64,000 nt of DNA from Tubulanus polymorphus (lineage: Eukaryota; Animalia; Nemertea). Below the pieces are notes generated by a model, which saw nothing but the letters and a program-made list of their open reading frames with translations, made no database searches and was not told the DNA's origin. The stretch spans positions 7,720,485-7,784,484 of the forward strand of contig NC_134027.1 of assembly GCF_964204645.1 (NCBI RefSeq). The letters run 5' to 3'. Below are positions 10,820 to 42,600 of this stretch, one piece after another. The first letter of the stretch is position 1. Each line of letters begins with the position of its first letter. The position numbers and the translations under genes are program-made.

Positions 10820-13800
10820 ATGAGTTTTGAAATACCAGTCGGTTTGACAGATTTGTTGCAGGATTTTACCGTGCATGTTCTGCGAGAAAAACCGCCCGAT
10901 CTCATTCAATTCGCCGCCGATTACTTCAACAAATTAAATGACAATCGTCAACATCAGAATATCAGTGGCTGGGATGACGGTGGTGGGAAAGATGGGACGA
11001 AATTCATCAACGGAAAATCAGACTCTGCAGCATCCGAATCCGAAGATGATGAACCTATGCCAGGTCAGTAATCTTCCGGTAATCACATCATCCAATGATA
11101 TTTACATAACTTCATCAGTTGCAGGTGAAAATGTGATGTAGGTAATTTAGGATTAAGTACTGTTAATTTTAGTTAGTGAGTTAAGAATTGAAATGCAAGG
11201 TTAATCAAGAAAGTAGAAAAGGGACTTTAGGCTTAGCATGTAGTTCACCGAGAACCAGCGTCATTGACAATGTACCGCGGCAGAATGCTATTTTTTCTCA
11301 AAACTTTTAAATCGCCCTGACTATAAATCTCATTGCCAGCAGGGAATTATTTTTACATCTTAAATTTGTTCATTCTAATGACAGTTTTATCCTGAAACAA
11401 ATAGACTGGTCACTTAAGGTCACTGGAAGAATAAAAATCATTATAAGGTCAATATAGACCTACTATAGATGGTTTATTCATTGAAAGTGTGGTCAGCAAG
11501 TCACATAAATTTTAATAATGTCTGCTGGTGGTTTTGAACACAGGATCGAGAGCCTCTAGAGCAATGTGGATAGGCCTACAACGAACCGCTTGCTGGACTA
11601 GGCTATGTGAAGGTGTGGGTGTCCAGGAAGCCCATGCTGATTGTCCATTGTCCACTGCACTGCTGTTTGTCCACTTTTGGTATAAACATTTTTTTGAAGA
11701 AATATGAAATTTCTGAAAGGATCCAAAATTTGTTAATAAGCCTACAGTGAAACCTGCTTACAACGAACTCGAACACAACGATTCATCGGATATAACACAT
11801 ATGGAATTTTGTCCCAATCAAGACAATTTGATTTATTTCATACTGTGGATGAGCCTTTAACAAATTAGGCCTATTGGTTAATGAACATTTTCTGGTCCTG
11901 TGAAGTTCGCTGTGACGAGGTTCACTGCAGCAGTCGATATAGTTTGCGCAACAGGATTCTACCCTAGTATGAATATTATTACGCGTGTTAATTTAGTTCT
12001 AGCATTTTGAAGGCTGTATTTGGACATGGCGTAGGCCTATCGAATTACGATCTAATTCTAGTCAAACCAAAGTTTGTACAAGAAATTCAGGCATTCAGTC
12101 AGACCTGACTCTCTCACTGGAGTTTAGCTGTGGTGTATATGTTTTTCGTATGTATTTTTGAACGTGTGTAACGCTCTTTAACCCGAGGTTATTTTGTCGG
12201 TTTTCTTTGTTCGTCGACATTTCATAAATGTCAGCTCGCTGAAGTAACTCGGGAGTATATTTATCCACGGAAAAGTAAATTATTTTATTGCGGCAAAAAA
12301 TCGATTCTTATTGTTCTTGTAAATCGACTGTAGATTTCTGGCATGTGTATACATGCGTGTGAGTGTTTAAATTGACAGAGTAGTCGGATCTTCGGGGCAT
12401 CGACATCCAAAACAAATTTATTTTTTTAAGTTGTTTGTTGGAAGAATAGAAATGAGCCTATATATTGGGGTAAGACAGTTTGGGGCACCTTTCCGATATG
12501 TGGTGCTAGTGGTTAGGCTATATATCTGTGGATAAAAAATATCTGCGGCCCCTACCAGAGCGGATGTCAATATTGTATCAATGCTAATAATCACTTTGAA
12601 ATATATTGAGCTAATGTGATAAATACAAGATCAAACACCAAAATTATTGAAAATCAACCACCCTTCATAATATATTTGCTGCCCCTACCAGAAATAGAAG
12701 ATTACACTAAAATTAAGCTTAAGTTTCTGTTTTTTTGGGAGATGGAAAGCCTTGCTACTTCAGCAGCCACGATGTCATGAATGCAGCCCATTTAGAATTC
12801 CGGTATATGCAGAACACTGGTTAGGGATTGCAACCAAACCCCAGGGAACTACGCAAACTGCTACATCAGTCTGAGTCTTCTGCTAAGTGCACTCTGAACA
12901 TGACTGGCGGTAAATTGCTATACTGCTAGGAATTTATGGGTGGAGTCGGTTGGTCAGTTGGAATTCATAGAATTATGATTGTGCTATCTTGGTGTCTACT
13001 GTTTTCACCTCGATATCGATGATCAGAGACTATTTTCATTCGTAAAAGAATTCATTATCGCATTAGCCGCATCACGTTGAATACTTCCCGATGTAATTCT
13101 ATTTTATCTAAGACACCCTGTTAGTGTTATTTCAATAGCAGGTGTGCATTTTAATTCCCGCTTAATCAACTTGATGATGAACGTCCTCGTTGTCTATTTC
13201 AGAGTATCTGTGTGTTATTACCGAGTGTCTTATAAATGTGTCTTACCCGTTAATTGGTCGCAGGTTCAACTGAAGCAGCTGGAATAACAACTCTCCTCCC
13301 AGAGAGAGAGAGTCATTGCAGAAATAATAACTCTCAGTAGAGAACCTTTTTCAGAAAAAAAACTGAAACAAAAATGCGACTTGGTGATGATATAAACTCA
13401 GTAGGCCTATAGCTGGAGACATGGAGACAAATTGGCACGGAGCAGGCCCGAGTCAAATTTGGCCCGTTCACATGTAAACCACTCACTCGATACTAAAACA
13501 ATGCTTAAACAACGCGAAGTGAGTCACTTCCAGAACCTGTAGCAATTCAAACGCGATCATTTGTTCCGTGCTAAAATTTGGCTCGGCCTGGTTCGGAGTT
13601 GTTGGTCGGGCCAAGCAGGCCCATTTTGCACCTGGCATCTGAATGGTTGTTTCCGGGTCAAATTTAGCCAAGGCCAAAGATGCTTGTGTGATCGCGGCTT
13701 AGATCTGAAAGACTGGTCGCTGAAATAACAGCACGCGTACTCAGCAGAATTCCTTAGACTATTGATCTCAATACAAATTATTTTCTATGATAAAGCCTCG

Positions 13801-16800
13801 CTACACCAATGATTAGTTTTGTTACCATTTTGTTTAAATCAGTTCCTGGAAATGTTGACCATCGATAGCAATGAATATGTCAGGGAAATTCTCGTTATGC
13901 TCGGGACGAATTAGGCAATCGCCAATGATTTGCCGGAAAGGCCATGAGGACTCACTGCGTAGTGACTCACTAGGCAATTTTTAGGCAATTTTTCTGGCTA
14001 TTAAGAATTGGTGTCAGTCCTGTGACTGAGAAATAGAGTCTAGTCAACAGCATTTCAACAAGATTCCACTTTCAAATGACGCAATTTCCACTTAGTATAT
14101 AGCAGAGAAGGCACGAAGATATCATATGAATAGACAATGATGGTTGGTCTCAAGATTTCATTTCCTTTGTTCCTTTGCCTGTAATTTCGTTATCCCACGT
14201 CTCGTGGCAGTGCTGGCATTTTGTTTGATCGCTGGATTAAAAAGATCCAATTCAATTGGCGAAAATTCAATTGGTTGATGGCAATAAGGCGATTTTATTG
14301 CTGTAGAGCGGACACGCAGACGATTAGAAGTGCATTTTCTGGAATGGTCGTGGAAATCATGATTTTGGTCGCAAGTTCAGTGATCAAGGTAAAAAACCCA
14401 TAGGCCTAGTTGCTGATTAAGACATTCATCGTCTGACAGATTCGGAGTTTATGTAAACTCGATCATCGGAGAAACATTAAAGTTTTAGATAGAATTTAGA
14501 TAGACTCCTAGAAACTTGTCAAACGATAAATGTTTTAATCATCAACTCTGAACACCGAGATTGATATCGGTCTAGAGGAGTCAAGCTCGGTGATCTCGAT
14601 CGCTCGTTAGAATCGCTAGATGCCTACACAGATACGCTTAGCGATTTTTTCCCCAGAATTTTTGCCATTCGCCGCGATCAGCTACAGAGCGCCTCACCGT
14701 ATCGTAGCTGAGATACCATATCTTGATAATGATCGCGTTTATATCCTGATTCAGGTATGGGGGTATCTAAATGGTCGATCTTGTTTGTTGTTTAACCTTC
14801 CGTAGCCAAAACGGATGCTTTTTGAACAATGAGCCGATTCAAAGCTTAGGCTATGATATTGATCTGGTCTCCTTTTCCTGGTAATAGAAAATTGTGTCAA
14901 ATACACTAATTGGTCGCGTTTTATAGCCGCGATCACATGGACACAATTTGGCCCGGGCCAAATTGGCACGGATCAGGCTCGGGCCAAATTTGTCCCGTGC
15001 CTAATTAGAGAGCGCCAAATTTGGCCTGGGCCAAAAATGCTCGTGTGATCAGGGCTTTATGTTTCATGAGCTAACCTGAAATGGATATGATTCGTTGGAA
15101 CTCAATCGAATGTATCAACAAACAGCGTCGTCGAAACAGATGAATGGATTTATGTCTCCAATCTACAGCTCCGATGAACCAGGTGTGTTTAAACCGGCTG
15201 GTCACGTTTCATACCGCCGGTAATATAGTAGAATAACTGTCGCGGCTGTCAAAGATTCTCCACTCTTCTGATTGATGCGTCCAATCATGGATGGGTTTCC
15301 TACATGAGGAAAGTTGGCTACAGCCCTTCGGAAAATTGTACCTACTATATTTTCACAATTTAAGGCATAAGGGATCATTCATTTATTACGTACACATTAG
15401 GGGAGGGGGGAGGGATAAGTGCAATTGCGTACTCTAATGCTTAATGTATATGAAAAAATGGCCCATTTTGCATACAGGGGGTGCGGGGGGGGAGGGGTTG
15501 AAAAAGTCAAATTTCATGCGTACATAATAAATGACTGATCCCTAAGCAATAATGAGCAAGATTTTGACGGGCGCTCAAACTATAGAGGAGAACTTGTCAT
15601 TGTGAATAAGTGTAGCAGTTTTCGATGGTTCTTGAAGACTCGTTCTCAGCTCATGTCTTTAAGAGACTCTTCGTAGTCTACTTGTGTAACGTTAAGGTGG
15701 AACTCTTCCAGGTCTCGGAATATAGATTAATCAACCGTTTATGTAGACGGTGATGCTGTAGTGATACTTCGACGAAATGTTGTAATAGTGACGAATATAC
15801 GTTTTTCGGAGTTCGAATTCTTCAAACATTTCAATTAAATCTGAATGAACTTATCTCTTAAATGAATCAATTATTTATGGGAACTATAACAAGGATATCC
15901 AAGTAGAAGAATGAAAGTATTGTATATTTGGTGGGTGCTGTGATGATATATGGATTCGGGAGTCTAAAAATCCAGTTCAAAGTTCATCGAACACGAACTT
16001 ATTTTGACATTGGATGGAATGGTTTATTTCGCTCTAACCAAACGTGACCCACTGCTAGTCACGCCATCTAGTGGGAAAGCAGGTTCAGCTATAGGCCTGG
16101 ATTTTTCTCTAATTACTTATTTAGCCAGCGGGAAAACATTTCATTGATTTGAAAAATCTTAATCAACCGTAGACACGGAGCAGCTGTGACGGCAATTATG
16201 CCTATAGCGTGTTCATGATGGTGAAAAATCTGTCTCGCTCCGTTGATACATGTATTTTTTTCCTATCATCATCGATAGATATTTCAAGAAAAATCGAGCG
16301 TGAATATATAGCCTGAGGGGTGAGAATAGAACAGAACCGAACGCTGACTGGAGGAATGGAGAAAGGTAATTTCTCAGCTCTTCGCCGCACTGTTTTATAT
16401 TTTGATCAATCTCGGTGTATGATTACTCTGACAGATTGAATATCGCGCTCTAAAATGAGAAAGTCGGTCTACACCACGCATCTAGAAAATTGAAATATAA
16501 ATAAGGCAACTTATTCAGTATTCAAGATAAAATGTGAAAAATTAGTTGATGATATTTATCATGCTGTATTTTGTATTTGCCTCGAGCACAGGTTTATAGA
16601 ATTTGAAATGATGAATGGACTGAGACTTTCAGAGTCGATAATAAGATAAAATCCCACTATTTACAGATTAAAAGAATTTAAAAACCAGAATTTATTTATT
16701 AAATCTAAAATATTTAAAAGACACGACGTTTCGATCTCACCCTAGAGATCATCGTCGATGTTTGTTTGATAATTTAGTGGTTGTCTCGTCGTCACGAAGT

Positions 16801-19800
16801 CGTCGACGCCGGCGATGGCACCGCAAATTGAAGACAGTTCACGGCGACTTTCAGGCTTAATATCTCTTCGGACTCATGCATAGAATCGTCAATGATTCGG
16901 TCGGCCGTTCATCGACGTATTGCTCAGATTTATAGCTCAGATAGAACTTAGATGAAACTGCGAGGTCCATACGCTCAATGCCTGGCTAACGCACGTTACA
17001 TACCTCTTCCTTTCGCTCTACGATTCATAAACGTAGATCTTCGTCATCGCGCTTATTATCGCCGGCATTTTTTCACGAATTATCGTTTTTGCGACATATA
17101 GGAAATATTAGCATTCTTATGTACGAAATGGAACGGCCATCTACAGGTAGGAACTGATTCGAAATATCATTTAGAAACTGAAGCTTTTCAGGTTATAGTC
17201 GAAACGTTGAATTTATAAATCATCAGTGGTGAGTAACTTCTCGGGCCTATATCTTTCGTCATATAATTGTGGGATTCTCTTTTTACTGAAGCTTTCCAAT
17301 TTTTGCAAGCAATTTTCATTTTAAATCGTATCATAGAAAAAGCAACAAGTTTTGCCCAAATGAAATTCACTTTCCTTTTTAGGTTAAACTGCTAAGATTC
17401 TTTTGGTTCATGTTCATGGCTAAATTTCTTATATGATGGACAAAATTTCGGCAAATTTCTTTCTCGCACAAGAGTCAGAAATCAGCGAGCGGAATTTATC
17501 ATTGTTATCCTGTTGTGGACTGTGTCCGAAATTCAGTTCAAGGCTAGTCATTTGGATTTAAGTTTTATACAATTAATTTCGGCCAATTAGTCGAAGCTTC
17601 AGCGAAATTCGTGACAAAGTCAAATTTGTCGTAATGAATTATTCACTTTACCAGGTTTTCAATCAATAGTTTCATTAACTTTCTAGACCAGTAACTTTCA
17701 AGCTACGTCCTTCTTCGGCGATTAGTTTATGTTATGACAAATTTCATCGAAAATGAAAGCGCGCGTTCAATACTACGAATTCCGTCGTTGAATCGGTATC
17801 GAACCTTCTTTATTACCCATTAGAGAAAGTCTAAAAGCTTAGATTCACTCTTTCTATATGAGTCAATTCAATACGCGGCGAGATTCAGTATCATTGCAAG
17901 CGCTATTCATATGATAAACACTTCAATATCAGTTTAACTAGGAATTTGTAGGGATTTTAACATCGCTGTCACCGTGAAAGTGACACTAAATTGGTCCCTG
18001 TTGTGACGTAATTTGCGGAGTAGGTTTCTGGTCAGTACCGTCGTTCGGCGTTCAATACGAGATTCCCTTTCGATAATTTCACCCCGGGGATCATTAGCTA
18101 TTAGATTGACCGACTGAGGTCCGTAATACTGCAATACGGCGGCTTAATGTCGATATATATCTTGTACCGTATTCCACCAGACCCTGAAATGCTGAAATGG
18201 GAATGAAGTATCCACGGTCATTCATAAACTTTATCCAAATGTTATTCCGATATCTGATGTGGTATAGATAGCTTTCTAGTTTGGGGTTGGCTATTTTGGA
18301 ATTTATTTATCAGGCCAAAAACCCTGTACAACTTCTATTTACTGCTTGAAATATCTTAGACCTATGACTCGCTCGAACCTACGAGCAATTGTTGCTCGTA
18401 GCTCTAACATACTATTGTATTTTTTTTCATATCTTGACCTGGAATTGTCTGTCTTATCTATTTGATCGACTGATTTTGATTTGATTTGGTGTATCCCCGA
18501 AAAACCCACACCACTACATCTATCAGGAACGAAATGGGGGGTTTGATTTTGAAATTGAAGTACAGATATAGTTGGAAGGTCGAGCGAATTTACAGAACTG
18601 CTCTATTCAAATCAAAATACATAATTCAAATGGGAAATTTCCAGTTTGTAGGAACAATCTTTCAACCAGCCTGAACCGGCAAACGACTGATTTTAGCATC
18701 TTTGGGTGCCTGATTTAATGGCAGGGAGGTTCAGACGCAATCAGATACTATTGTATGATATAACTGCTGCTGGTTGGTGGTAATTTTTCCGTCTGTTAGT
18801 GTGGATGTGTGCGATCTGCTAACAAATTACTTATGATTGCTTATAGCCGGTATTAACTATGATTGGTAAGGGGGATGCTGTAGTTAGTTTGTCATCATCA
18901 AAGATGACGTCTTTTCATTCATGCAAACGTGCTTCACAGTCTGCCATACTAATACCTTCTTTGATGAGTTTAGAAATAGAACCGTTACCAGGTTGATAGA
19001 ATGTGATCGTGAGCAGAGCATAAAGATGGACTATCCTGGAAAAATTGATTCATAGTTAACATTGGTTTTCCTAGGTAAGTTGGTGGTCTTTGAACAGCTA
19101 TCAAGTCATCCTGGTGTTTAGGGCGTGGTGCTGGTTTTAAGGGTCAAAAACCCTAAAATCATTCAGCCTAAAATCATGCATACTTTAACCATGATTCCCT
19201 TGAATGAAGCCTTCCATTGGGAATCATTGTAATTAAGGGTTCCACTTGGCAATTGTCCGCCAGGTTCACTAATTCTGTAACTTGGTCTTCTGCATTCAAG
19301 TTCTTCTGAATTTCATTGAAATCGAATCAAGGGGCCAAATACCCTGTTGGGGCAGTTGGCGTGGCTTAATTTTCCCCTTCAGATTGGGATTGGTAGGCCC
19401 AGGATTTATCATCAAACTTGAACATTTTGTGCATTGTATCATCTTAAAAATTCAAGCTTCGAGTTTGTTGGTCGGTTTTGTATGAACTCGTGTGCATCTC
19501 CACAACCACCGGTTGCAGTGGGTCGGTTTCCTACTCGTCGGCTGAATTAAGCATCGCTCTGTTTATGATCGCGCAAATTGAGTTGTGATATACACATTCG
19601 ATGTGATCGATGATTGATGCGGCAATTCGTTAAGATCTTCAGTCGTACGGTCGTCTAAAATTGAACTGAAAATGACATCCATATAATCAGAATAAGCAGT
19701 GATTACGAGCTGTTGTACCCGAGCCGTATCACTGTTAAGATGATGCCGACGCGAGAGCGTATATCATTCACTATCCGTCTCATTCGCTAGTTCGCGTATC

Positions 19801-22800
19801 GGCGTATCGGCATAATGATACGCTTGAGAAAGCTTCGTTTTCACTCGAAATTATCGTTTAAGTAATACGATTGTCCGAATTTACGCAAACTAATCTACAC
19901 GTCGATTGATTCGGGTATTTCAGCCGCAGTGGACTGTAGTTAGTCAGTAACACCGTTGTGACGCGCGCCGTACTGATGACTACGACCGAATGAATCTCGC
20001 TAAACTTCCATCGCGCCCTCCGTCGTCGTAGTACCGGCCGGCGTACTGCTCCGGAACCGTCGTCTGAAAACGGGAGAGTTTTGAAAGGAGATACATATAT
20101 ATATAATATATATCTATATACGTACCAATATTATAGATCACGGATATATCTGTCCAATCAGTTTTTATATCGTTCAGTCGGAAGAGAGATGTTTCCATAA
20201 CAACTTTGTTCCAAGATCAACAACAGAGGAATTATTGATAATATTGTTTGTGTGTAGCCGAATATGGCAATGAATAGGACAAATTCCCTAAGTCGGAGAG
20301 GGGCGATCGGTGCTGGATCAGGTAGGCAGCCTTCATTGTTTAAAACTTCATTTGTTCTTTCGTCATCGTGTTGTGCGATTGATTTTTCGTTTTTTCTCAA
20401 AACCTGGCTTTCAGAACATGTTATTTGAGTCGAATGCGAAGAAGATTCTATATACATCTTTACCGAGAGAACGTGATGTCATTAGATATTAAATAAATGA
20501 GTTATAGAGCACCTGTCGGCTGTTTTATTAGGTAGAAAAATGATTAATGAATGGATTACTATCAGAGAGGTCGGTGGGGGGGATTTTGTAGTCGAACTGC
20601 TGGTAGCTTTATTCGTACGGATTAGATTTCTTAAGCGTAGTAACGCTCATATTGTTCTTGTCTCGCCTGAAGGAGTGTAGTTCTTCTGCCAGTCAGTAAC
20701 AATTCTAGTGGCTATTCGTAAGAATTGCCTGATTTTCACTGCGAGTGATTTTCTGCCCTTATTTTTAGATCAGCGCGCGTCTTTCTAGGGCGATGTGTCG
20801 GTCTGTTTTCGCTCTATCTCGTGACTAGTCGTCTTCGAAAAATGATTTCATATAGTTGGTGAATGCATTTGATACGACGTATTTGCCCGTGCCCCTCGGG
20901 TGTCGTTGATTATGTCAAACAGCGTTTAATTCTCGATGGATTATGTTTAAATCATTCGTTCCGTGGCTGATGTTATATTAGATAAACGTTGGAAATACAG
21001 AAAATATCATAAGTCTACATGAAATATATTCCGTGTATAAATGAGGCTTTGTACCACGTAGTTGTAAGCGGCATGAATAGCGGTGGTGTCCGTTTTGAAA
21101 CGGGCACCAGTTTTTTGCGAGAGCTGGCTATGAATTTATAATTGATGTTGCCCGGGGTTAGATGTTAAAACTTGAGGTGGCCGTAATCGACCTAGTAGTC
21201 ATAATATTAGGTCCAGATCAATAATGAGTTTTTAATAGTCGTCTTTTCATTTTGAAATCAATGGCAATTCAAAGCTATTTAAAAGGTTTGATACTTTTGA
21301 CTATGTGCTAGAAACATAATAGAGTATGCAGCACCCCCTGTCTGCTTTCATGCTCATTTAGCCTATGGTTTTTTGTATGACTGGCAGTTAGTTATGCAAG
21401 AAACTCACTTTCACCAGGCAGTTTTTGTGGTTTTCATTCATCGCCACGCTATACAACATTCACCCTGGGGGATACTGTCAGATCATACTGTCCTCGTAAT
21501 CCACCAAGTTACCGTTGCTGCCGTCGTCATCGTCGGGTTGTGCGCAATTTTCGGATAATCGAGGACGGTGGTTAATTGACTGCTAAATGAGAACGGCCAT
21601 AGTAGAAAATAAGGTGCGGACGAAGAACAGCATGTCGTCAATCTTCCAGGGTTATAGTAATTAGTCGGCTATTATTCATGACTATAGTCCAACTATAGCG
21701 AACTTTAGTTCGCTGTAGTTTGCACCTAATTTCAAGATGTCCGTGGTCTGCGTTTTTAGCTGATTTGATATAGGTTACACCAAATACAGTCTTGGCATTG
21801 AGTTTTATTTCATTGACTTATTTAAAGGCTTAGATAGAAATACATTCTCTAAGTGAAGAAAGCCTGCGGTCTTTTCTATTCGTGTTCACCTGTTGCTTTT
21901 TTGAAAAAAAATCGAATTCAACATGGCCTACTGCCAAATTTATAAATAAAACAAGTTTGTAGCTAAATATAACCTGTCCGGTTTATTTTAGAGAATTAAT
22001 TTCGTTGATCAGGATTATGCAATGTCTTTTTTTCTCGGCTTAATATTACATTAATGTTGCTATGAGTACAGTATTATCAGGTAGGTCATTTAGTCACTAA
22101 TTTGTCTTGACCTTGCATAGGCCTGGACATTATCAAGATACTTCCCTTGCACGAAGACGAGATAGCAATGTTTAGGGTTCATAGCATGAAGAATGCCTTG
22201 GAGTGAATTTTACCAAGAGAGTATAGAGTCTAACATGTGTCTCGGCTGGTGTGCCACGAAATGCTTCAGATCACACCTGAAATGATGATATAATGACACA
22301 GAAATTGTCGATCCTCATCGAAGAACAAGAAATCATTTTTCAGGGTGCGAAAGTGTTCGAAATATGTGTTTAGTCTGTCACAGACAGCTATCATTAATCA
22401 ATTTTTAATGTCTTGAGGAGCTTGTAAACAACTTGCGCATTAATACAATATCCCCTCTCTGAAGACTGGTAACTTCTCCTTGGGCTGGCCTGATTAGGAA
22501 TTGATTTGTTGCCTAGTGTATTCTCAAAGGGTCTCTGGTATTCTCAATATTTCCTCGCTGTGACTGAATAGTGATAATATGATCTGTATGAATGTCAATC
22601 CGAAAGAATCAATATTTAATTCTCAGACTGATCAATCTAAATTATATTAAACCCGCACGAAGCAGACTCATCTTCGTGTTATCTATTTTGACAAATTGCT
22701 TAACCGCTAACAACACCAAATGGCAACTTGTGTTTGAAACAAAACATCTCTAATTTGTCCGTGAACATTTCTATCTTTGCTCAAAAAGGGTCGTTGACAT

Positions 22801-25800: not shown

Positions 25801-28800
25801 TATCAAATGTATGGGTTAGTTATATGTCATGAAGGTCAGCCGCATGAAATGATTTTCACTTTCACTAGCATCTTACAGTCATGAACTTACTGCTGAAAAG
25901 ATTAGTCAGTGAACCTTGCATTGCAGCATGGGATTGATCGGAAGTTTGAAAATCGTCGTGGGAATTTCCTGATTTAGATTGCCTGTCAGACATTCACTGA
26001 CAACTCGTCAGTGGTTCGAATTAAATTTGTATGAGAGTTACGTTTTAACCTTTTGTGGCAGCAAAGTTCAATGTATAAATCTCAAGACAATGTTGTTAGC
26101 GTAAAAGAATCGAATAATTTGCAGACCATCTTGACCTATGGCTTCTGCATTTGCAAAGTGATCTAATGTAAAAAATGAGTTTTGTCTGTTTTTATCCACC
26201 ACCAGCGAAAAAAAACCCCATGGAAATCTCAGGGTTTTTTTTCAACCCAGAGTCAAATCTTAATTCACAAATGTGTAACTGGGTCTAGAACTTCAAGCCT
26301 TCAGATTTTTAGCATTTTATTTTGTGTGAATATCATGCAGTATTTGACCTCCCATGCATGTCGAGACATGAACTTGGATAACCTGCACCTGTGGAGACTG
26401 GGTCCGTTGACTACTGGGTATGTTCTTTTGTCCATGGAGGCCTCAGGTAACAACAGAATCTGTAGTTAAAGGAGAAAAACGTATTCCATAAGCAGGAGTC
26501 GATCCTCTCTGATCTACTGTTTATTAATCAACGGGTAGAAATTAATTCATTTTGGGTAGAAATTCATTCATTTTGAATTATGATCAACATTTATGCTTCC
26601 AAAACTTTGACATGATGGAATTTTATTTTCCGCGAAATGAGTACTCTATGTCAAGAAAAATTGAAACAGCAAAATAGCGTGATCTCTGTTCGAATGCTAT
26701 AGCTCTCCGTAAACTGAAATCGAATGAAATAATTGATCGGGATAGATGCTCGTTGTGGGTTGCGCGTATGATTTAACTAGTCATTACGCTAATTTTGTCG
26801 TCGTAGTCGTTGTATCGCCTGCTATTCATCTAATTATGTGATCTTGCGTATTGTGGCTTCGGGATCTGATAATTTCCTGCCGCGATTTCGCAATGTCATC
26901 GAGTATTACCTTATTTCCGACTGCAAAATCTATTTCCACAACTCTCTCTCTCCAACACTCTCTCTTGATTCAACTAATGCAGTTGATAATCATTCAATTA
27001 GAATTTCACCCATGAAGTTGAATCAAATAAATGAATGAACTTATGAATGATGACGATATCTTGCGAGCCTCGAGGTTCATGAGACTGCTGCCACTGCTGT
27101 TGCTGCTGTTGCTGCTGCTGAGGAAGACATCGCTCATTCATTACGCGTGAGCTTTTTTTTGCGTCTGTCTCCTGCAGAGTATTAATCTTGTGATCAGCGT
27201 TTAATCAAGTTAGGCTTGTAAGTTTCTGGATCCCTGAAGAAATGAAAAAACCAACTTCAATTTAATCATTCAACTTCACTTTGTCTCGTGCCCCTTTCAT
27301 CATTCCTTCCCTTTTTTTCATTGCTCATCTTTTCTTGTACTCCACGGAAGGTCCAACTGCAGGGTGGCCACTGACCTAGAAAACCAGGAAAACCCCGAAA
27401 GCCCAGGGAATCAGAAAATCTAGAAAAAAAATGGGGAACTCTGGGAAGTTTTACAAATAAACCTGGAAATCTTAGGGTAATTGGATATGTAACAGAAATG
27501 GGTTCCTATATGAATACGTGATTCATGAAAAATGAATGAATTCAACATCATTAGATTCACTGAGGGAATTTATAATGGGCGCAAAGTGGGGTCAGCCTGG
27601 ACCCATTTCTACCCCTGTCAACTCTAAACCCTAAACCTATTCTCAAGACAGTACACATGCTGTCTCTGTAAGGCCCTATTGAACGTTCGTTCTTCAGCTC
27701 GTCTCTCTTCAGTGTCACAACCACCCCTACTAAAAACAATAAACAGTTTCGCTCTGATAATAGACATGAACATCACTCAATAATGAGCTGATGCGATTTG
27801 TTGTCTATTATCTATTGTCATGGTAACCGATCTGTCTGTATTAAACAGTTGATGTTTGCGTTATCAGTAGCTGACGCCACCTATCAGCTATCAATTGAAC
27901 CGACATTTAAACAGCGGTGATGACAGAAATCCTCTATGTATCGATTTGATCTTATAGATGGATAATAGATGTTTATTCAAACACTGTAGGAACACTTCTT
28001 TCTATATGTGAGATAGTGCGGGCCAATGATCTGTGAAGTCAAAATTAAACATCTTTTCACCTTTTGTCTCGCAATCTTTAACTAGATTTGAGACTGACAT
28101 TTTTCTAAGGTCAATATAGTTGGGACCTAAATGTCTCGTTGTGTTGGTATTAAGGTCATCTAATCAATTCTAAAGAAAACTTACCTTCGGAAGTTTTATT
28201 TGGGTCAAAATAAGAGTTTATTAGTTGACGGGAAAAAATTCACTGCTAGACATACGCCAAGCATTCTGTGTATCGGAGTTCTTATTCTTTAAAACATCAA
28301 AGCATGTCTGGTTCTTCTAGTGATTCTGATTTTGGTATGTACTGATTATCATGAGTTATAAGGGCTGGAGGATGGAATATATATTGTAGTTTTTTTCTCT
28401 TACAATCAGTGTACAAGTTAAAACATGTCTTCTATTGATTTGTTTCTGGCTATGGCTCCATCCATCCTGAAATGAATCAAGAGATTTAACATTGAATAGT
28501 TTGTTTATTCGCTTCATTGATTTAGGAAACGTATTTAGTTAAAGAATTAGCCGACTTGAGATTTGTCGAAGAACTTATAGTGATCTATAATTTGAAGATC
28601 CAACCTTTTTACCCATGTTTATTGGATGATCAGAAGTCTCCAATAAACCTCCCAGTTGTAAATAATTGAATTGTAAAATTCTGTTAGCTCTTATCAAGTG
28701 GAAAACAATCATTAGCAAATATTTCCTCTGATTAAACTCTGTCTGCTGCTGCCATCTTGTGGAGTTGATTGAAACCAACTGTCATGCTAGTGTTGGTATC

Positions 28801-31800
28801 TGCAGCAAATATTCTTATTGTCAGAGACCATTAGGGCAGAGAGATCGTCGGAACAACCAAAAAAAAATCCTCGAAAAAGATATATTAAGTATAACATCCT
28901 ATTTGACACAGATCTCTTGACTCTATCTGAGTCTCTACTGGGGTCAATCTTTTTTTTAAATCACTGAGTTTTATGAATAATTTTTAGGAAACACTCTATA
29001 AAGATTCTCAACTCTGTATGATGGTCAACTTTTGTGAAATTGTTAGCCTAATGTGGCCCCACCAATACTGAGTAAGGTGGAATTCAATATGCTTCCATTA
29101 GTGGTCACGAAAAATAGGGTAGAATAATTTACAATCCATTATTGAATTATTAATTCAGATTTAGGTGTGGATGTTTCAGTTTGAGTAATATTCAGTTGTC
29201 TTGTGCTGCAGTACATAGCATAAGTCCAGAGAGCCTGTTGTGTCATTATACCCACTGAGCTATTATTACTCCTTTGATCAATTATTGTATCGCATGCCAC
29301 ATTATTGCACTTCAGCTAGTGTGCTGATGTGGTAATGGACATATAAGGGTTAAACTTTGATGACTGTGCGACTGACTGTCGTGTGAGTGTGTGTGTGTTG
29401 TAGTAGAGCAGGGACACTGAAGATCGTACAGACTGTAGTAGTGGCATCAGAGATCCGCGGTCGTCGCTTGTCGGATTTCTAATCCAGCTAGTCAACGATG
29501 TAGGAAGGATTTAGTTTTTTTCTTTTTTCGAAAACTGTTTTTGACGCGCACGCACGCGTGTATTGCACTAACGACGCGACGGTATTCAAAAAAAAGTTGA
29601 CAACAAGGAATATTTATAATATGTTATGGGAGGATTATGTTCAGTTTGTCAACATCAAAGTTCACAGCGTGGTGTAAGTGCAGATAACTCTGATGATAAT
29701 AACGCCATGGGTGCTAAGTTGACCAAGTTGCGATTCAGTAAAGACTCGACGAATTCAGCCGGCAATAATTCCGATAGTAATACTAATAGTACGGATGAGG
29801 CTATTCATGCGAAAGAAGGTTGGTCGATCTTTTGGAGTTTTTGTCGTTCGTGCTACCCCCGGTATATCATTCTCCTGTCACTTGCTTGATTTAGTCACAT
29901 TCCTGAATAGAAAATGGGCACAAAGTATGCGGATTAGATTGTGCCGCTCATTTTTTGTAGTAGAATATTCGTAAATTCTGCGGATTCCATTTATAAATCA
30001 TTGATCGTCGGTCTTCCGGCAACAGCGACCCTGGAGCTGGTTTTCGGGTTTTGGTACGCGATGCTTCGATAGCGTGTTCAATAAATCATACTATTCCCCC
30101 CCCCCCCCTGGGTCATGACAGAATCTGAGAACTTATATGGGCTTCATGAACTGATAAGCAAATCAGGCAGTGATCCATGCTACCATTACATTACATGCCG
30201 TAGGATTCTTCATTGACGGCAAAAAGTTTGCATCAATTATGTATTTTTGAAGATTAGAGATATGATAGTTATTAGTTGCTTTTTTGATACATCAAATCAG
30301 AAAGTTGCCAGACACAGAATTTTGTACAAAGGGAACCAAGTTAGTAAAATCAAAGCTACGTAAGGCTGATTATATTCGAGGATTTTTCAAATAACACTCA
30401 ATACCAGGATCTACTTGACATAAGCCGCGATCACACAAGCATTTTTGGCTAGGTTAGGCCATAGCTAACCGTTTAACGGGTGTGCCCGTGACTGTTCGAT
30501 CCGGGCCGAATTTGGCCCAACCAAAAGCGGGGCCGAACCTGATTTTGGCGCGCATCAATCGAATCATTACGTTTGTATGCCTAGCTTTAGCATTTGATAG
30601 CATCGAGTGAGTGGTTTATGTGTGAACCCGCTCTCTCTAATCAATTTGCAAAAAATTTGACTAGGGTCTGATCCAGGCCAAATAGTTTCCGTGTATGATC
30701 GTGGCTATAAGCTGGTATACAACTAGTTGTTGAAAGTGCCAACTCGCAATTCGTTTTACGTCGTGGAATACATATTTATGTATTTTCTAGTTTCAAACAT
30801 ATGCCGACGAATAAATATTCTTGACATATCAATGCTGACAAGTGTGCTAATACGATATCCCGCTAATATCGATTGAGCGATGCCTTCAGTCGGTTTCGAG
30901 GGCGCTTCACGCGCGCAAACTCGTCGCCTGAAACGCTATATAGCCAATTCATAAATGATTTATCAAAATGGATTTCAATTAATAACTCTCTCGTCGATAT
31001 GCCGTAATAATATTGAATTTCGAGTAATGCATCACATGTAAATTTCACAGCTTTCAATCCGCGGTTAATAGCCATTTTGTGCACGCACACTTCAGATACC
31101 GATGCATGTCGCGGCGAATAGGTTCAACCCTTGAAATGCCTCGTATTGGAATATATATATTCAATACTGCTTTTTGATATTACTATTTTTCTGCTTTTTC
31201 GATATTATCATTGACGTTAATTTTGATTTTTCTTTGCTTCTTTTCAGAACCACCGAAAAACAGATTTCAAAGGCGAAAATCAGGTAAATGAAAAACTTTC
31301 ACTGTTTTAACCGGATGATATCTTTTGATTACAGCCAAATATATAACAAATTCCCTCTTCGAAAAGAAAAGTTACGGCAAAGCCATTTCCTTTTATGGGC
31401 TTTGAATAAGACTTCACCCAGATCCTAACAGAATCGTGAGATAGATGTGATGATACTGTTTGAATTTAACTGCTAGAATCGGGTACACGTCACATCGAAT
31501 AGCCGCGTATAGATCGAGAATTATCGTCATTAAACGAACTCGAATTAGAATAAAATTCACATCACCATGAATTCAGCGGCCGGTCGTCGGTCGATCGGTC
31601 GCGAAACGCATCATTCAAACTCGTGTCGGAACGGAAAATCGGCCATGTTTTTAATTAACGATTGAAAATATTCTCCGCCAACCCGATAGAAATCAATTCA
31701 TCGATGACAGCTGCGACGCATCCACCGCACGCGTTATATATAGGCTAACAAATAGGTTTTGAAAATATCAGTCGAGTCGTATTTTGTTCCTTTTATCAAC

Positions 31801-34800: not shown

Positions 34801-36601
34801 GGGCCCAGGCTAAATTTGGCATGACCAAAAACGTTGGACCAGGCCCAAACCAGAATTTAGCACGGGTCAAATTATTTCATCTGAATTGCAACTGGTTCGG
34901 GAAGTCTCTCACTTTGCTTTGTATTAAGTATTGCTTAGTATCGAGTCACTGATTTACATGTGAACGCGATCTCTCTTATTTGACTCGAGTCTGATCCGAG
35001 CCCATGAGCCAAATTCTCTATGTGTAATCACGGCTATAGACACTGTATCACCTTGGTCAGTCAACACACACCAGCATTTACATGTGTCTTAAACAGTATT
35101 TTCATTCCATGGTATTTTCAGTGTCAGCCGAACGTTATGATCCCGAAGCGGATGAAGACGAAGGCGATGAACAGGTAAGTGTGGAGACCTCCCCTGTTAG
35201 TATACACCCTCCTCGACGCCGTCGCCGATGACATCATCTCTTTAGACGTCTTACTAACGACGTCGTAGCAGTTAGATTTTCGCATTAACTTTGATCTAAC
35301 GTAGGCACCCCGTGGAAACAATCTAACCAATCATGATATTTCACGTTCTGATTAGCTAAGACCGTCTACTCGGGTGCATTCGGTGGAAATAGTAATTTTC
35401 TTTCGTCGACGTCGTCGTGCCCCGCAGAGCTAACGAACAATCCCTTTAACCCATCGTCAATATCCTGGCTGTAAACGCTGTAACATCGCTAGCATCGGTT
35501 TACAAATTCAACCTTCGTTTATAATTGATGATCATATTTTGCCTAGAATGGGCTACGCTCACCGGGAAAATGGCCTTCATTTATATTGATACCCTATAGC
35601 TGAAGCTCGAGTCTGCTATCTACCATGGTGTTTTGGCCGCATGGTGCTTGGCCCTGATATGACTGTCGAACGATGGTATAAAACTGGGGCCAAGTTAGAG
35701 CATGGATTCTAAGTCCATGGTTAGAGTTAACCAGTGGTTAGTTGACATAGAGACAATTAATAGTTCGTTGTTACTACGGTATTTATTTCCCCCCACCGCC
35801 CCCCCCCCCGGTTATCTTAAACCAACTCTTGAGCAACTGGTCCCTGGACCATTGGGTTCCGCAATCGGTTCGCATTCAAATGTTAGTTGAATGAATGAAA
35901 AATAACGATGAAATTGATTTAATGAAACAAGTCTAATTTCTCAAATTGATGAACGCGGCGAAACTGCAGCCTGAATATTGTCATAAGAAGAAGCCGATTC
36001 TATGTGGATGATATAACTATCGTTTAACTACAACCACTGATTGATGATTTACCTACGTATCACCCCCTGTTTAATGATCATAAAACCTGTGTGATATTCG
36101 ACAGATTGAAAACCCGTTCGAAATGATGATGGATCGCGCTAGACATTAATCAGACAATGAGATATCTGTCTCTATCTCTCTCTCTGTACAGCCCTCCTGC
36201 CCGCCCACAGTTATTCATAACCTTAAATAGACGTCGGATTTTTATATAAACTGCACAATTTCATCACAAACAAAGCCGGGTGTATGTTTCTGATGAGATA
36301 CACGAGGGATCGCAACTGAACTGAATGATTAGATTTTTGATCTGTCAACGTCGCGATATTTTCATTAATTCTCGACGAGTTTTCCTCATTTCAATTAAGC
36401 CGATGCACGTTTTTCTTCTACTTCAATGTTTTTCTTCTTTCTTTTTTTCGATACAGAAAGTTTATCCGAAGACGGACGAACAGCGAAAACGATTGAGCGA
36501 AGCGACGAAGAACATCCTCTTATTCAGGAGTTTAGACAATGTGAGTGTACAATGCGATTACCCGGGAATTTCTTTGTCCGTCTCTTCCTCCTCAAACATT
36601 G

Positions 36602-36664
<63 letters not shown>

Positions 36665-39600
36665 CTTATATATGTTAGAAACTCGTCGGCATTTCATTAA
36701 ACTTTTTAAAAAAGCGTGTCAACTCTTCACATTGATCTTCTATTGTTCCTACGCGTAATAATTGTCAAAAACCAATTGACACCTTTTTTACTTAAAGAAA
36801 TGATCTCCTTACACTTACTCCGCCCAAAACGAAATGAACTTCTCTCCCTGCTGTTCCCATTGTTCGTTCTCATTTACCTATTGACATTAAAGCCGATGTC
36901 GGAGACATTTTCTACCATTTTAGTCGCTACGACTCTCCGTAATTCTTGAAAACTGTCTCGGGCAGATTCTTTATTAGTGTAGAGACGCGAAAGATCCGAT
37001 GATAGATTGCGCAGTGTTAGCTAATTTAAATTGATTACTTTCTCGTTGATTCGCTTTCCTAATTTCTTGTTTGTCGATTGCATCGGAAGTGAAAAATTGC
37101 CCTGAACACGTTTGAATGGCGGTTCGGTTGCCTCAGTCACATTTCTCCTAGTATCAGGCAGAGAATGTTTTCATTGTCAGATACGTATCTAGTTTACGGA
37201 TAAACTTGAAGAGTATGAGATTTTGAAAGGCAATCGAAATGTAATAGGAGCCTCCAGTCAGCGTATGTTTACCGGGTTTTGCCTCGTGTTTCTGCAGAAT
37301 GATAATTAAAAAATTGTTGTTGATGGTATTTATCTAAGCTTTGGGGCCCTAGAGCTTAGATTTCGAGAACATACAAAAACAGCACAGAACATGTTTAAAA
37401 ATCAGTCTTTTCGATTTTCTTTTTCAGCAACAAATGCACCAAGTAATCGATGCAATGTTTGAGAGGAAGGTAACTATATCTTTTTTATCTTATTCTATTT
37501 TCTGTGTTCGTAATCATCGCACTGCCGTGTGGCGGTCACTACTGATTTGTCGATGTAGCTAGTAATGTAATTTATTCGTTCATCACATTGACGCCTAACT
37601 AGATTTTTCCTGTTATATATATACATAACGGCAGTTTCTGCTCTCTGCCATCTACTACAGCCAAAATTGATGACTGCTGCCAAGATATGACAATAATAAT
37701 TTCCTCTCTGAATAGCTCATTATCTGAATGGATCTGATCGTACACTTGTGAAGTATTTTGAAAATTAGATCGCTCTGACATTTCTCGGTAGATAGTGCCA
37801 CAATCATGGCTGGTATTCTGGTATAACCATGCCATTACTGATAATAGAATGCGTATTTTCTTCATTGTCTTGAAATCAATTTGAGAATTTTTCCGAGCGA
37901 CCATTTGGCGAATAAATAACAAACATACTACGTCAATGTTGCGCTCTGGATAGTACATCTTGCGGTACTTGTAGCATAAAAAAGATTAGTTAGCAGTGGC
38001 ATTGTAGGGCAGTCGTGTTGATCTTAGTAATGCGCTTATCAAGTGGTCTGGATCGATTTTGGCTGGCTAAGAGCGGGCTGACACAACCTCGACGATATAT
38101 ACATTATGTTTAACCAGCAATTTAATAATGTACATGAGGGAAATCATGGCGTTCTCAGGATTTGAATTATTCTCGACATGAAATGTGCGGAATTCAAATA
38201 TGGCTAGGTGTTCGCAGCGGCTACCTCTGCTTAACTAAAGCGTAATGTAATTCCTGTGAACTACGACAGTTACAGCAGTGTGTCAACAGTTGCTGACTAT
38301 CTTTGAATGTTAGCAGGGTACGGCTGTCCCTGATGATCGTTTTCCTTCCCCCTTGTGGTATGAATAGATATCCTTAAACTTGGGTCTAGTCTCCAATAAT
38401 GAGAATAGATTTGATAACAAAAATAGGGTCGCCACTCACCTGGAAATCAGGAAATGGTTAGGGAATTTTGTAAAAAGCTAACAATCGAGGAAAAATCTGG
38501 GAAATTTGTTGAGTTTGCTAGATGGTGCCTTTAATCAAACAGTTTCCGTCCAAGTTTTACGTATTTTACTTCGTTAATTGATTGGATTCTTAGCAGATCA
38601 AGTCAGGGAAAACAAAGTGCACATGTCAGGGAATAGTCAGGGAAAAAGCAAGTCGAATAAAAGTGGCAACATGTATGAATCAGTTTGTTAAATAACGCAG
38701 TTATCAGGTTTTTCAAATAGGGTTTCTCGAGTAAAGGGTTAACGCGGATAATTTTCTGCGCATATGGCGTTTCTCGTGGCGGTGTCTTATTTTAATAGTC
38801 AGACTTTAATTCGATGAACTAAGATTCAGTTTACAGCGATAGAAGATCCCGGTAATGGAGCTCATCAGGTGATCATATTAGATATAACGTCGACGGTCTA
38901 TGAATCATTTGTCGGCGGCGTGTGCCATATTTATAAAGACTGGTATTATGAATGGCCCTCGTGTTAATTGTATTTATCAAATTGTCTTCCACTTTAAGTA
39001 ATAAAAAAGCTTTTAAAAAGAAAATACTGCAAATATAAGTCATTTTTAGGATCAACCGTGTTGATGGTCCTGAAAATAACAGTCTGTTTGCTCTTGGTGG
39101 CACAAATTGTAACCGCTGGATATACACAGCTGGTATTTTGTCATTAGGCGAGAAATAGGGGTTCATTAGTCCGTCCACTCTGCCGTTTAGAAGTACTGGG
39201 AGAAAATGTTCAAAAATTTCAATGAATTTATCCCCATTCTACTTATCGGTGCTTGGCCTTAATTCTAGATAATGACGTCATTGGGAAAGTCCTTCGGTAT
39301 TCAAGTCGCAAATCCCAGAACAAATCGTTTTTTTGTGGTCAAAAGTAAAACTGTACTCAGTTGATCCTACTGGACCCATGGTCCTTTATTCATGCATAGA
39401 TATGATAGAGCTTATTCGTTTCAAAAAAAATAGGAGCGTAGAATTTTGTCCGAACATTAGTAGAAGTTCGATGGAAAATCTTAGTCATTGTGCGGGGGGG
39501 AAAATAATTATGCTAATTTTTCTCTAGTTAGGCTAATTACTCGATACGAAAAACATCTAAACTTAGTTAGCATTTTGATGTCGAATGAACCGACGGGATC

Positions 39601-42600
39601 TGTCGGATTCGCCACCGATTGATCGGTTGGGTATCGGTAGGCGTTGTTGTTTATCTCGGATTGTTCCGGCATTTATCGACTTCTATTCTCGCGGAGACTT
39701 TCGACATGACTTTTTTTTATTCGTCGTTCGATGCGATCGACGCGCGGCGGTCGGTCTGTATTCGCCGTGCATCTAATGCGCCCCGAACGAGCCCGGATAA
39801 TTGGATCTTGCTGACGTCCATACATCTGTCTGTTGGTTGTCATCTCGCGCTGATATGAAAAGCCCGGATGGCCGGTAATGCCGTCAAATCATCACCGCTG
39901 ATGATAATACAGCTGTTTAGTGGCTTGTGTACATGAGGTGATCAGAAAGAATACTTCATTTGTCGCCGAATCGAACGGAGCCCTTGATCAATTCCATTGT
40001 CTCGAGACCACAAAATTCGGTTTGTGTTTAGGGACGTCTGTTGGTGGCATGTAAGAGGCTGAACTTACTGAAGTCATCAGTCTTTTACCGGTCGTATCAA
40101 TCCAGGATTCGTCGGTCGTCGAAATCTTCTTGAAGTATCAAAGACACTTTCTTTGACTTTGATTGCGCATACGCAGATCGCTCTAGTCTGCAAGAACCGT
40201 TTGAAATACCGCAGTGTGCCACTCACTACCGTATATTGGTTGCTGTGGGGATGATGTTGATCATGGACTATGTAACTAGTTTTCAAATCCAAGCAGTAAT
40301 GAAATGATAAATTATCAGTTGGGAACTGAGAGGCATGTCATTTGCCCTTTGTTTAAAGAGCAGAAAGACATTAGCGACTACGTTTAACAGCGAGTCTGCT
40401 GGTCCGCCGTGAACTTTGGTATTTTGTCATTCAACAGTTGGAAATGCAGTCGCAGTCGTTTTTATCTCCCCGATGACAAACATTTGCTTAAGGAGAGATA
40501 AAGCTTTTTTAAGTCTTCCAATATTTAAGAATATGAAATATTCCGTTGGGAAATACGTTTTAAATATTCTGATCTATTCAGCAGATTGAGGGATGAGATC
40601 TCCGTCTTTTGTTTTCGATTTATTTTTTCTATTTTCGCTTACCGGGGGTACGATGAAAAAAGTAAGCAGCGGGGAATCGAAAATTGAATTACAGGGGACG
40701 CTTTGATTTATATATTTTTCATGCCGCGACCACATTCGTGGTTTATTAACGTGCATTACGCTTTCGTGAAAGCGATGACGACTGCGCGAAATATGGTTTG
40801 CTCTAGGATGCATTACGCCGGTGAGGCTATTTCAGGTCTTACCGTTCATTCGTTCGTCTGTCTCGCGGTATGGTAATTCATATTTTACACACTTAATAAA
40901 CCACGAGCGTCTCCAGCGTCATTAGTGAAACAAATCAAACGGAAACTCTCTCAAAGTGTGAACTCAACTCAACTCAACTGAAAGCGTAGAATATCGGTAT
41001 GATTCCGGCTGATATTAGATATTCTAACACTAAGGGGTTGTAGATCTACACCTTGCAACTATACATAATCCCTTTTTTCATCAAATGTTTTACCGAATCA
41101 TAGGAAGGAATATTTTTAGGTTTTCTTTAGATGAGTGTTGCATCCTTGGATGTATTTCAACTATTGCTAAACAACATCCTTATTCAGTTGGTATTTGTAA
41201 TTATTGTCATGAATATGAATAGTAAACAAGGGTGAATCAGTGCCCTTATTCATTTTGTCAATAACGATATTTGGTGCATTTCTCAGTAGGGAGTGCAGGC
41301 TATATTGCCTTTTTAGACATCAAAATGCCCGTTTGGGATGCGACTTTGAAATTGGCCTCCGGATCTGCCCTGTATATCTACATTTTTGGGGCCTTTAAGC
41401 TCATTTTTAAAATAAAGATATTTTCATTTCTTTTGATTTCAGGTAACGCCTGACGAACATGTAATTGACCAAGGAGATGATGGAGATAATTTCTATGTTA
41501 TTGACACGTAAGTTTACATTTAGTCACATCCTGTGGCCAGCGTTTGCTTGCTCTGAATAATTATTAATAACTCAAACCGGTTTACCGTGCTCTTATTTGA
41601 AACCTGCTGATAATCATTTCGACCAATTATTCATTCATTGAGTGCTCTTTATACAGGTCTCTCTCCCCTCTCGCCTCTCCCCCTCTCTCGCTGTTTCTGC
41701 TCCCCTCCAGGGGACTGTTATCCCTCTTTCTTAACTGTAGCCCTCTTGTCATATTTCCAACTGCATTGAGATTACAAGCCTCTCATTGTTTCTCAGCAAA
41801 GAAAACTGCCTCATTTTTACCTGCCCTCCCCTTTTGATCTAACAGAGAAGAAGCATTTGAATGTAAACTTTTTTAGGTATCAATTTTATGTTTTTCATTT
41901 TTCCGTAAAATTTCAGGGCAAGTTGATATTTTCAGGAGGGGTGCACACGCTCGTATCTACCTGTGATGTATGTCGGCTACCACGCATAAAATGCATCCTC
42001 ACTGAAATGAACGTCGTGTGTCCCTTATGTCCTTGCTTGCCTTTGAAAGACTCGCGCTCACGTGGTCCCCCTATTCAATCAGTCCCTCACATCCCACACT
42101 CGCGCCTTTTAATCGAACCCACGTTTAATCAGCCTATACTACAAACTAAACTATAATTTCATAGGGTCGGTAAGGTTGATTATGAGCTGTATATTGTGCT
42201 GGCTTTTTCCACTGCGTTGAACATAATTGTTATCGTTCTCCTCACGTAGTCGTCGTCGTCAGCTACTCCGTCGACGTCGAGAACTGGAAAGCTTCACGGA
42301 GAGGATTTAGCTTTGATCTTGAAAAATGATGTTTCAGCTACAGCGTTGTTACCCGGGAAACCCTGGTCAATTCAAAGTGCTAATCGAAATTGGATTGCTC
42401 CATATTAATGTGGAATTAAAAAGTAACGACTGCGACGAGCTAATCTTTCGTCATCCCGGCGCGAGATCGGCGATGAACGTGAAAGCCTCCATCGGTGCTT
42501 CAGATCCACGTATTACCGTCAGATTTTACTGAATGTTCAATGTTCGTTTTATCCAAGTTCCAGGATACTCGAATCTTGGGTATAGTCGACTGTATACTGG

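Follow-up and report, generated by a model that had tools for sequence, protein, structure and literature searches.

The RII gene and a candidate first exon in its first intron

The analysed window, the whole stretch of 64,000 nucleotides from contig NC_134027.1 of the nemertean Tubulanus polymorphus, holds the gene for the type II regulatory (RII) subunit of PKA. Motif scanning of the window placed a PKA regulatory-subunit gene on the forward strand between 10820 and 51786. Its exon 7 was 100% identical to a T. polymorphus RefSeq protein whose cluster comprises three isoforms (X1, X2 and X3), and the 13-exon model read from the window matched all three exactly (Table 1). The first exons of these isoforms each join exon 2 at 31248 in phase 1 and, since the isoforms differ in their first exon, the gene already uses alternative first exons. 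Its type II character is seen in the RRxS autophosphorylation site of the linker (RRKSV), read from exons 2 and 3, and in two cAMP-binding domains that are closest to RII: the nearest solved structures were those of RII-beta and RII-alpha, and an isoform from another nemertean, Lineus longissimus, matched RII structures at 1e-112 to 1e-122 and RI structures at about 1e-61. The flanking genes, at 241-1149 and 3634-4554 (+) and at 58656-59117 (-), were judged by eye and are presumably those of a PHD-finger BRPF/peregrin protein and a DSTYK-like kinase. In the RII intron between exons 8 and 9, an intronless, GC- and CpG-rich ORF of 442 codons lies antisense (46726-48054, minus strand), and by eye it resembles a DNA-binding protein of the Myb/SANT-like type that carries a coiled coil at its C-terminus.

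Table 1. Features of the T. polymorphus RII gene discussed in the text (window coordinates)
Feature	Position	Strand	Basis
Canonical first exon, dimerisation/docking (D/D) domain, RefSeq X1	10820..11063	+	Exon model identical to RefSeq
Alternative first exon MEK, RefSeq X3	16356..16365	+	Exon model identical to RefSeq
CpG-rich block, probably the promoter and 5' UTR for the exon at 20264 (putative promoter role)	19500..20263	+	CpG observed/expected
Candidate alternative first exon, coding part: 19 codons and one base, ending at a phase-1 donor	20264..20321	+	Sequence; donor 9.9 bits; in-register match to Lineus X3
R-x-N-S at P-9 to P-6, conserved; may be phosphorylated, next to the pseudosubstrate (putative role)	20276..20287	+	Lineus X3 has the same R, N and S
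Pseudosubstrate-like RRGAI, P-3 to P+1	20294..20308	+	RRCAI equally far from exon 2 in Lineus; same five residues in the Smoothened PKI motif
Alternative first exon, short, Ser/Asp-rich, RefSeq X2; like Lineus X4	28304..28334	+	Anchored score 23, second-best pair
Exon 2, acceptor common to the first exons; codes RRKS of the canonical RII site	31248..31283	+	Exon model identical to RefSeq X1, X2 and X3
Exon 3, completes RRKSV; acidic linker	35122..35174	+	Exon model
Exons 4-13, two cAMP-binding domains and stop	36457..51786	+	Exon model identical to RefSeq proteins

The initial annotation had proposed a further first exon in intron 1, carrying a pseudosubstrate of the RI/PKI kind. Its coordinates, sequence, translation and phase proved exact (ATG at 20264, 58 nt, RRGAI at 20294-20308, donor CAG/GTAGGC), and the two acceptors that it named, 31248 and 35122, do begin exons 2 and 3, with both joins open (330 and 318 aa). 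It had counted this exon as the third, which holds only if the D/D (10820) and MEK (16356) exons are the ones counted. The CpG richness of the block described as promoter-like was borne out, with an observed/expected ratio of 1.93 in the 700 bp upstream of the ATG compared with a median of 0.92 for intron 1, and the block would be the promoter of the alternative first exon. The highest 500-bp CpG window of intron 1 (1.98) lies upstream of this ATG, windows of 1.8-1.9 occur elsewhere in the intron too, and the RefSeq X2 exon has no CpG peak upstream (0.76). The start context is good (A at -3, G at +4). In a weight matrix of donor frequencies, the donor at 20321 scored 9.9 bits; the 12 donors of the constitutive path, from the D/D exon to exon 12, ranged from 7.5 to 12.9, and those of the two RefSeq alternative first exons scored 5.8 and 8.0. 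An acceptor-like AG ends at 20257, so that a non-coding exon upstream of 20264 is also possible. An in-frame cassette following the D/D exon was ruled out, given that this AG is in phase 0 and the D/D donor in phase 1.

The 20264 exon is absent from the three RefSeq Tubulanus isoforms of the cluster. Contigs from sequencing runs X1-X3 run through intron 1 in a DNA-like manner, with no exon joints among the matches listed. Run X4, taken by guess to be RNA, gave three pieces on 19500-37500 at 80% likeness; the piece over exon 4 carried 13 differences in 88 letters and begins only 68 letters before that exon, which makes it uninformative for first exons, and none of these runs is weighed for or against the 20264 exon. 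Very high contig depth marked high-copy dispersed repeats in introns 1 and 2, at 16690-16756, 30420-30680, 32920-32960 and 34765-34900.

Intron 1 holds 30 candidates that run from an ATG to a phase-1 donor. One of 9 codons, at 17119-17146 (+), has a donor of 9.5 bits and an upstream CpG observed/expected ratio of 1.78, and it had no Lineus match among the top pairs. Two others that are unannotated, at 24223-24490 and 29626-29818 (+; 89 and 64 codons), both start with MGGLCS-x-C, which resembles an N-myristoylation and palmitoylation motif, and they possibly encode a membrane-anchored RII lacking the D/D domain; snail and Lingula RefSeq RII isoforms likewise begin with MG..C or MGS. Just upstream of the 24223 candidate, a short ATG-started frame (24117-24163, +) contains an RRVS substrate-like motif, and, its donor not being in phase 1, it may be an upstream ORF.

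The Lineus longissimus counterpart

The RII cluster of Lineus longissimus contains six RefSeq isoforms with different N-termini. One of them, isoform X3 (XP_064633497.1, an automated RefSeq model), has RRCAI, and thus RRxA[IV] was found at the same place in a relative, as the initial annotation had proposed to check. In an ungapped alignment from the exon-2 junction, 8 of 19 residues were common to Lineus X3 and the 20264 exon, with the shared pattern M-x-R-x-N-S-x-x-R-R-x-A-I-x4, in which M, R, N, S, R, R, A and I stand at identical distances from the junction. Conservation was concentrated on the motif (four of its five residues identical, none of the four tail residues), and the motif Ala precedes the Ser of RRKSV by 17 residues in both species. 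Lineus X3 thus resembles the Tubulanus product in gene, exon-2 junction, residue pattern and spacing to RRKSV, and differs from it by a longer N-terminus, a Cys at P-1 and a Lys at P-4. Tubulanus belongs to Palaeonemertea and Lineus to Pilidiophora, two different classes, and their RII proteins are 78% identical.

When the 30 Tubulanus candidates were paired with the six Lineus isoforms, this pair had the top anchored score of all 30 x 6 pairs (28). The runner-up, Tubulanus X2 with Lineus X4 (23), joins two RefSeq-annotated exons and serves as a positive control. A score of 28 was reached in 0 of 1000 simulated introns (maximum 26), in a test that was devised after the Lineus match had been seen and whose null is about twofold lenient, the simulated introns having a mean of 16 mini-exons (in the 200-intron simulation) against 30 in the real one. 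A mini-exon with RRx[A/G] followed by a hydrophobic residue arose in 5 of 200 simulated introns, so the RRGAI stretch alone could be a product of chance. The initial annotation had likewise noted that chance might explain so short an exon. Because the match to Lineus X3 is conserved, and with the motif alone not being decisive, 20264-20321 is likely a real alternative first exon joined to 31248.

The predicted product and its occurrence in other proteins

It had been proposed that splicing to 31248 would yield a subunit with tandem RRGAI and RRKSV sites, and this is supported by Lineus X3, which joins exon 2; exon 2 is also retained in all six Lineus and all three Tubulanus RefSeq isoforms. 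The likely product, as read from the exon model, is a predicted RII of 330 aa with an upstream RRxAI and the normal RRKSV, in which a site is added and not swapped. The D/D domain is coded in the gene but is missing from this predicted isoform and from Lineus X3. The initial annotation had further taken the exon for a type I/II switch by promoter choice. This part did not hold, since the exon-2 join keeps the RII phosphorylation site and adds a second one: RRx[A/G] is here neither the sole inhibitory site nor in register with the cAMP-binding domain. The distance from P0 to the conserved AExxDP is 20 residues after the exon-2 join, 8 after an exon-3 join and 3 for the canonical site. RI-alpha shares the non-phosphorylatable Ala at the P-site and, as far as the sources consulted describe it, carries it as the sole site and in register with cAMP-binding domain A, whereas the Tubulanus motif lies 17 residues upstream and RRKSV is kept. 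With RRKSV kept and a second site added, the arrangement resembles PKI, Smoothened or PDE7A1 more than it does RI.

Among 464 proteins gathered, RRx[A/G] plus a hydrophobic residue was found no more than 45 residues upstream of an RII-type Ser site in 2 of 293, namely Lineus X3 and a protein whose RRRGL lies roughly 40 residues off and is unrelated. Residues 6-50 of the Lineus N-terminus, used in a region search, returned 12 matches among 16 candidates, none with the motif; a search of 50% representatives (148 new proteins) added no homologous N-terminus, and a metagenome scan returned 14 loci that were uninformative on intron 1. As annotation misses such exons, and as the 464-protein set is redundant with clusters opened for 30 representatives only, the lack of further cases outside Nemertea carries little weight. 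A tree built from 24 proteins chosen by hand among 316, with no RI outgroup, did not resolve the lophotrochozoan branching. In the same tree, three R subunits found by RII queries (P0087, P0093 and P0145), which carry an in-register, non-phosphorylatable RRVAV, formed a long branch outside the RII group.

Loss of the D/D domain is in itself widespread. A D/D match was missing in 40 of 265 proteins with a linker site, some of them fragments, and D/D-less R isoforms are described for decapod RI and RII (PMC12608923) and for C. elegans KIN-2 (PMC9692727). These are comparable to the Tubulanus chain in having alternative N-termini that drop dimerisation and AKAP docking. They differ in that, in the portions of these reports consulted, each has one inhibitory site, RRx[A/G] in RI and RRxS in RII, while the Tubulanus chain is predicted to have both. 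Judged by titles, abstract openings and term counts, none of the papers listed dealt with the 20264 exon or with two inhibitory sites in one R subunit, although isoforms of this kind may be present in the supplementary alignments of PMC12608923; nor was the Lineus X3 motif mentioned in the literature searched. The parts are each known already; what seems new is their joint presence in a single R chain.

Predicted inhibition of the catalytic subunit and alternative readings

The hallmarks of a PKA pseudosubstrate are described as Arg at P-3 and P-2, Ala at P0, a hydrophobic residue at P+1, an upstream aromatic residue and a helix, the aromatic being Phe at P-11 in PKI and Trp at P-13 in Smoothened (10.1101/2021.07.05.451193). 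Both nemertean peptides have the four core residues (Arg P-3, Arg P-2, Ala P0, Ile P+1) and an upstream hydrophobic residue, as do PKI and the PKI motif of Smoothened, whose RRGAI is identical to that of Tubulanus. The upstream positions are hydrophobic and not aromatic (Met/Met at P-11 and Met/Leu at P-13 in Tubulanus/Lineus), and P-6 is Ser in both species in place of PKI Arg15, which belongs to the basic cluster of PKI (PMC6514771); the described Smoothened motif lacks this Arg too. An AlphaFold model of Lineus X3, with no partner present and pLDDT under 50 in this region, had no helix over residues 1-43. The candidate motif differs from PKI and Smoothened in having Met/Leu for Phe/Trp, in the absence of a helix from this low-confidence model and in its predicted fusion in cis to cAMP-binding domains.

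Pseudosubstrate motifs that inhibit the PKA catalytic subunit (PKA-C) from the N-terminus of a larger protein have precedents in ARHGAP36, with RRGAV (PMC5059767), and in PDE7A1, whose N-terminus has two pseudosubstrate sequences (PMC6143667). These proteins differ from the Tubulanus chain in not being R subunits and, as far as the consulted text describes them, in having no competing autophosphorylation site in the same linker. A Smoothened RRGAI peptide is reported to bind PKA-C in an ATP-dependent manner at about 0.8-0.9 uM, and Smoothened peptides to inhibit only at 50-125 uM (10.1101/2021.07.05.451193), hence a bare RRxAI motif may be weak.

On balance, and somewhat more confidently than even, we favour the reading that a conserved nemertean RII first exon, likely spliced to exon 2, yields a D/D-less RII in which RRxAI is predicted to act as a tethered PKI-like brake. 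Without the D/D domain, this subunit would be a monomer and would not be held by AKAPs. RRxAI and RRKSV would compete, as a single catalytic subunit could not hold both. cAMP would open the holoenzyme and RRKS would be phosphorylated, slowing re-association, in keeping with reports that RII phosphorylation weakens binding to C (PMC12608923) and controls PKA inactivation by modulating re-association (PMC5987717). The Ala site would then re-capture the catalytic subunit in an ATP/Mg-dependent manner. Stable binding is described as requiring ATP for RI and not for RII (PMC6143667). Since the Ala site cannot be phosphorylated, no phosphatase step would be needed for this re-trapping and, since RRxAI is offset by 17 residues from the register set by the cAMP-binding domain, it would probably proceed regardless of cAMP, with no need for its level to fall. 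A modest, Smoothened-like affinity may be offset by the tether. In the most speculative step, phosphorylation of the conserved P-6 Ser could turn the brake off.

It is rather unlikely, yet deserves weight, that the exon is real and conserved and its RRxAI too weak to inhibit PKA-C. The peptide would then serve a different function in a monomeric RII that is otherwise ordinary: it may be phosphorylated at R-x-x-S or bind 14-3-3, form a patch of basic residues for targeting, or be recognised by another AGC kinase. R-x-N-S is conserved as well as RRxAI, neither the P-6 Arg of PKI nor an aromatic anchor is present, and D/D-less R isoforms with varied N-termini are common, both in the proteins counted above and in decapods and C. 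elegans. Nevertheless, the two Arg residues, the Ala and the Ile have all been retained while the flanks vary, and this consensus match lies within a PKA-C-binding protein, where its local concentration would be high.

It is improbable that the two sites hold two catalytic subunits at once, with the monomeric isoform acting as a bivalent R1:C2 buffer in place of D/D dimerisation. The P-sites are separated by 17 residues, estimated at up to about 60 A when extended, residues 1-43 are predicted to be flexible, and the paired sequences of PDE7A1 offer a parallel. The size of the PKA catalytic subunit, however, is about equal to this spacing, and a clash is likely. A similarly small probability is given to the exon being unused in Tubulanus, as a chance look-alike or a silent relic. 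The exon is short and is one of 30 such candidates in intron 1, the motif alone recurs in simulations, and RefSeq X1-X3 lack it; against this, the start and frame are intact, the donor is strong, a CpG block precedes it, and the in-register match of eight residues between two classes was reached by no simulation. The direct splice to 35122, from which the initial annotation had foreseen an RII body whose sole inhibitory site would be an RI-like pseudosubstrate, keeps the frame open over 318 aa and has an in-register version in a Lingula RefSeq isoform, but is very improbable here, as it would put the Ala 8 residues and not 3 before AExxDP, five out of register, as exon 2 is kept in all nine nemertean RefSeq isoforms seen, Lineus X3 among them, and as introns 1-2 yielded no phase-1 exon ending in RRx[A/G/S]. 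The donor at 20309, weak at 1.4 bits, was rejected, since it would still leave the motif one residue out of register with exon 3.

The Lingula anatina isoform, X3 (XP_023932347.1, P0232), has RRSAV in the exact register of RRKSV, its first exon being apparently joined directly to exon 3. This RefSeq model is a candidate for a true RII-to-pseudosubstrate switch of the sort that the initial annotation had envisaged, in another phylum and by another exon, although its RRRS could serve as a shifted substrate site.

Returning to the tethered brake in nemerteans, a broader reading is put forward tentatively, at somewhat less than even confidence. A promoter-selected, monomeric RII with a built-in PKI would have been kept in nemerteans since before the split of Palaeonemertea and Pilidiophora as a cAMP-resistant and possibly phospho-gated brake and, together with the Lingula isoform, it would mean that lophotrochozoan RII genes build both RI-like and PKI-like inhibitors by first-exon choice. 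What separates RI from RII by definition is a single residue at a single site. A natural R subunit with both kinds of site, if true, would break the rule for these motifs, which the consulted text of a survey of metazoan R subunits calls entirely conserved (PMC12608923). Such an isoform should also reset without dephosphorylation, and would offer a ready test of the part that RII phosphorylation and phosphatases play in timing when a PKA signal ends. Nemertean oocyte maturation, described as being driven by cAMP/PKA, could provide a physiological setting for the candidate isoform.
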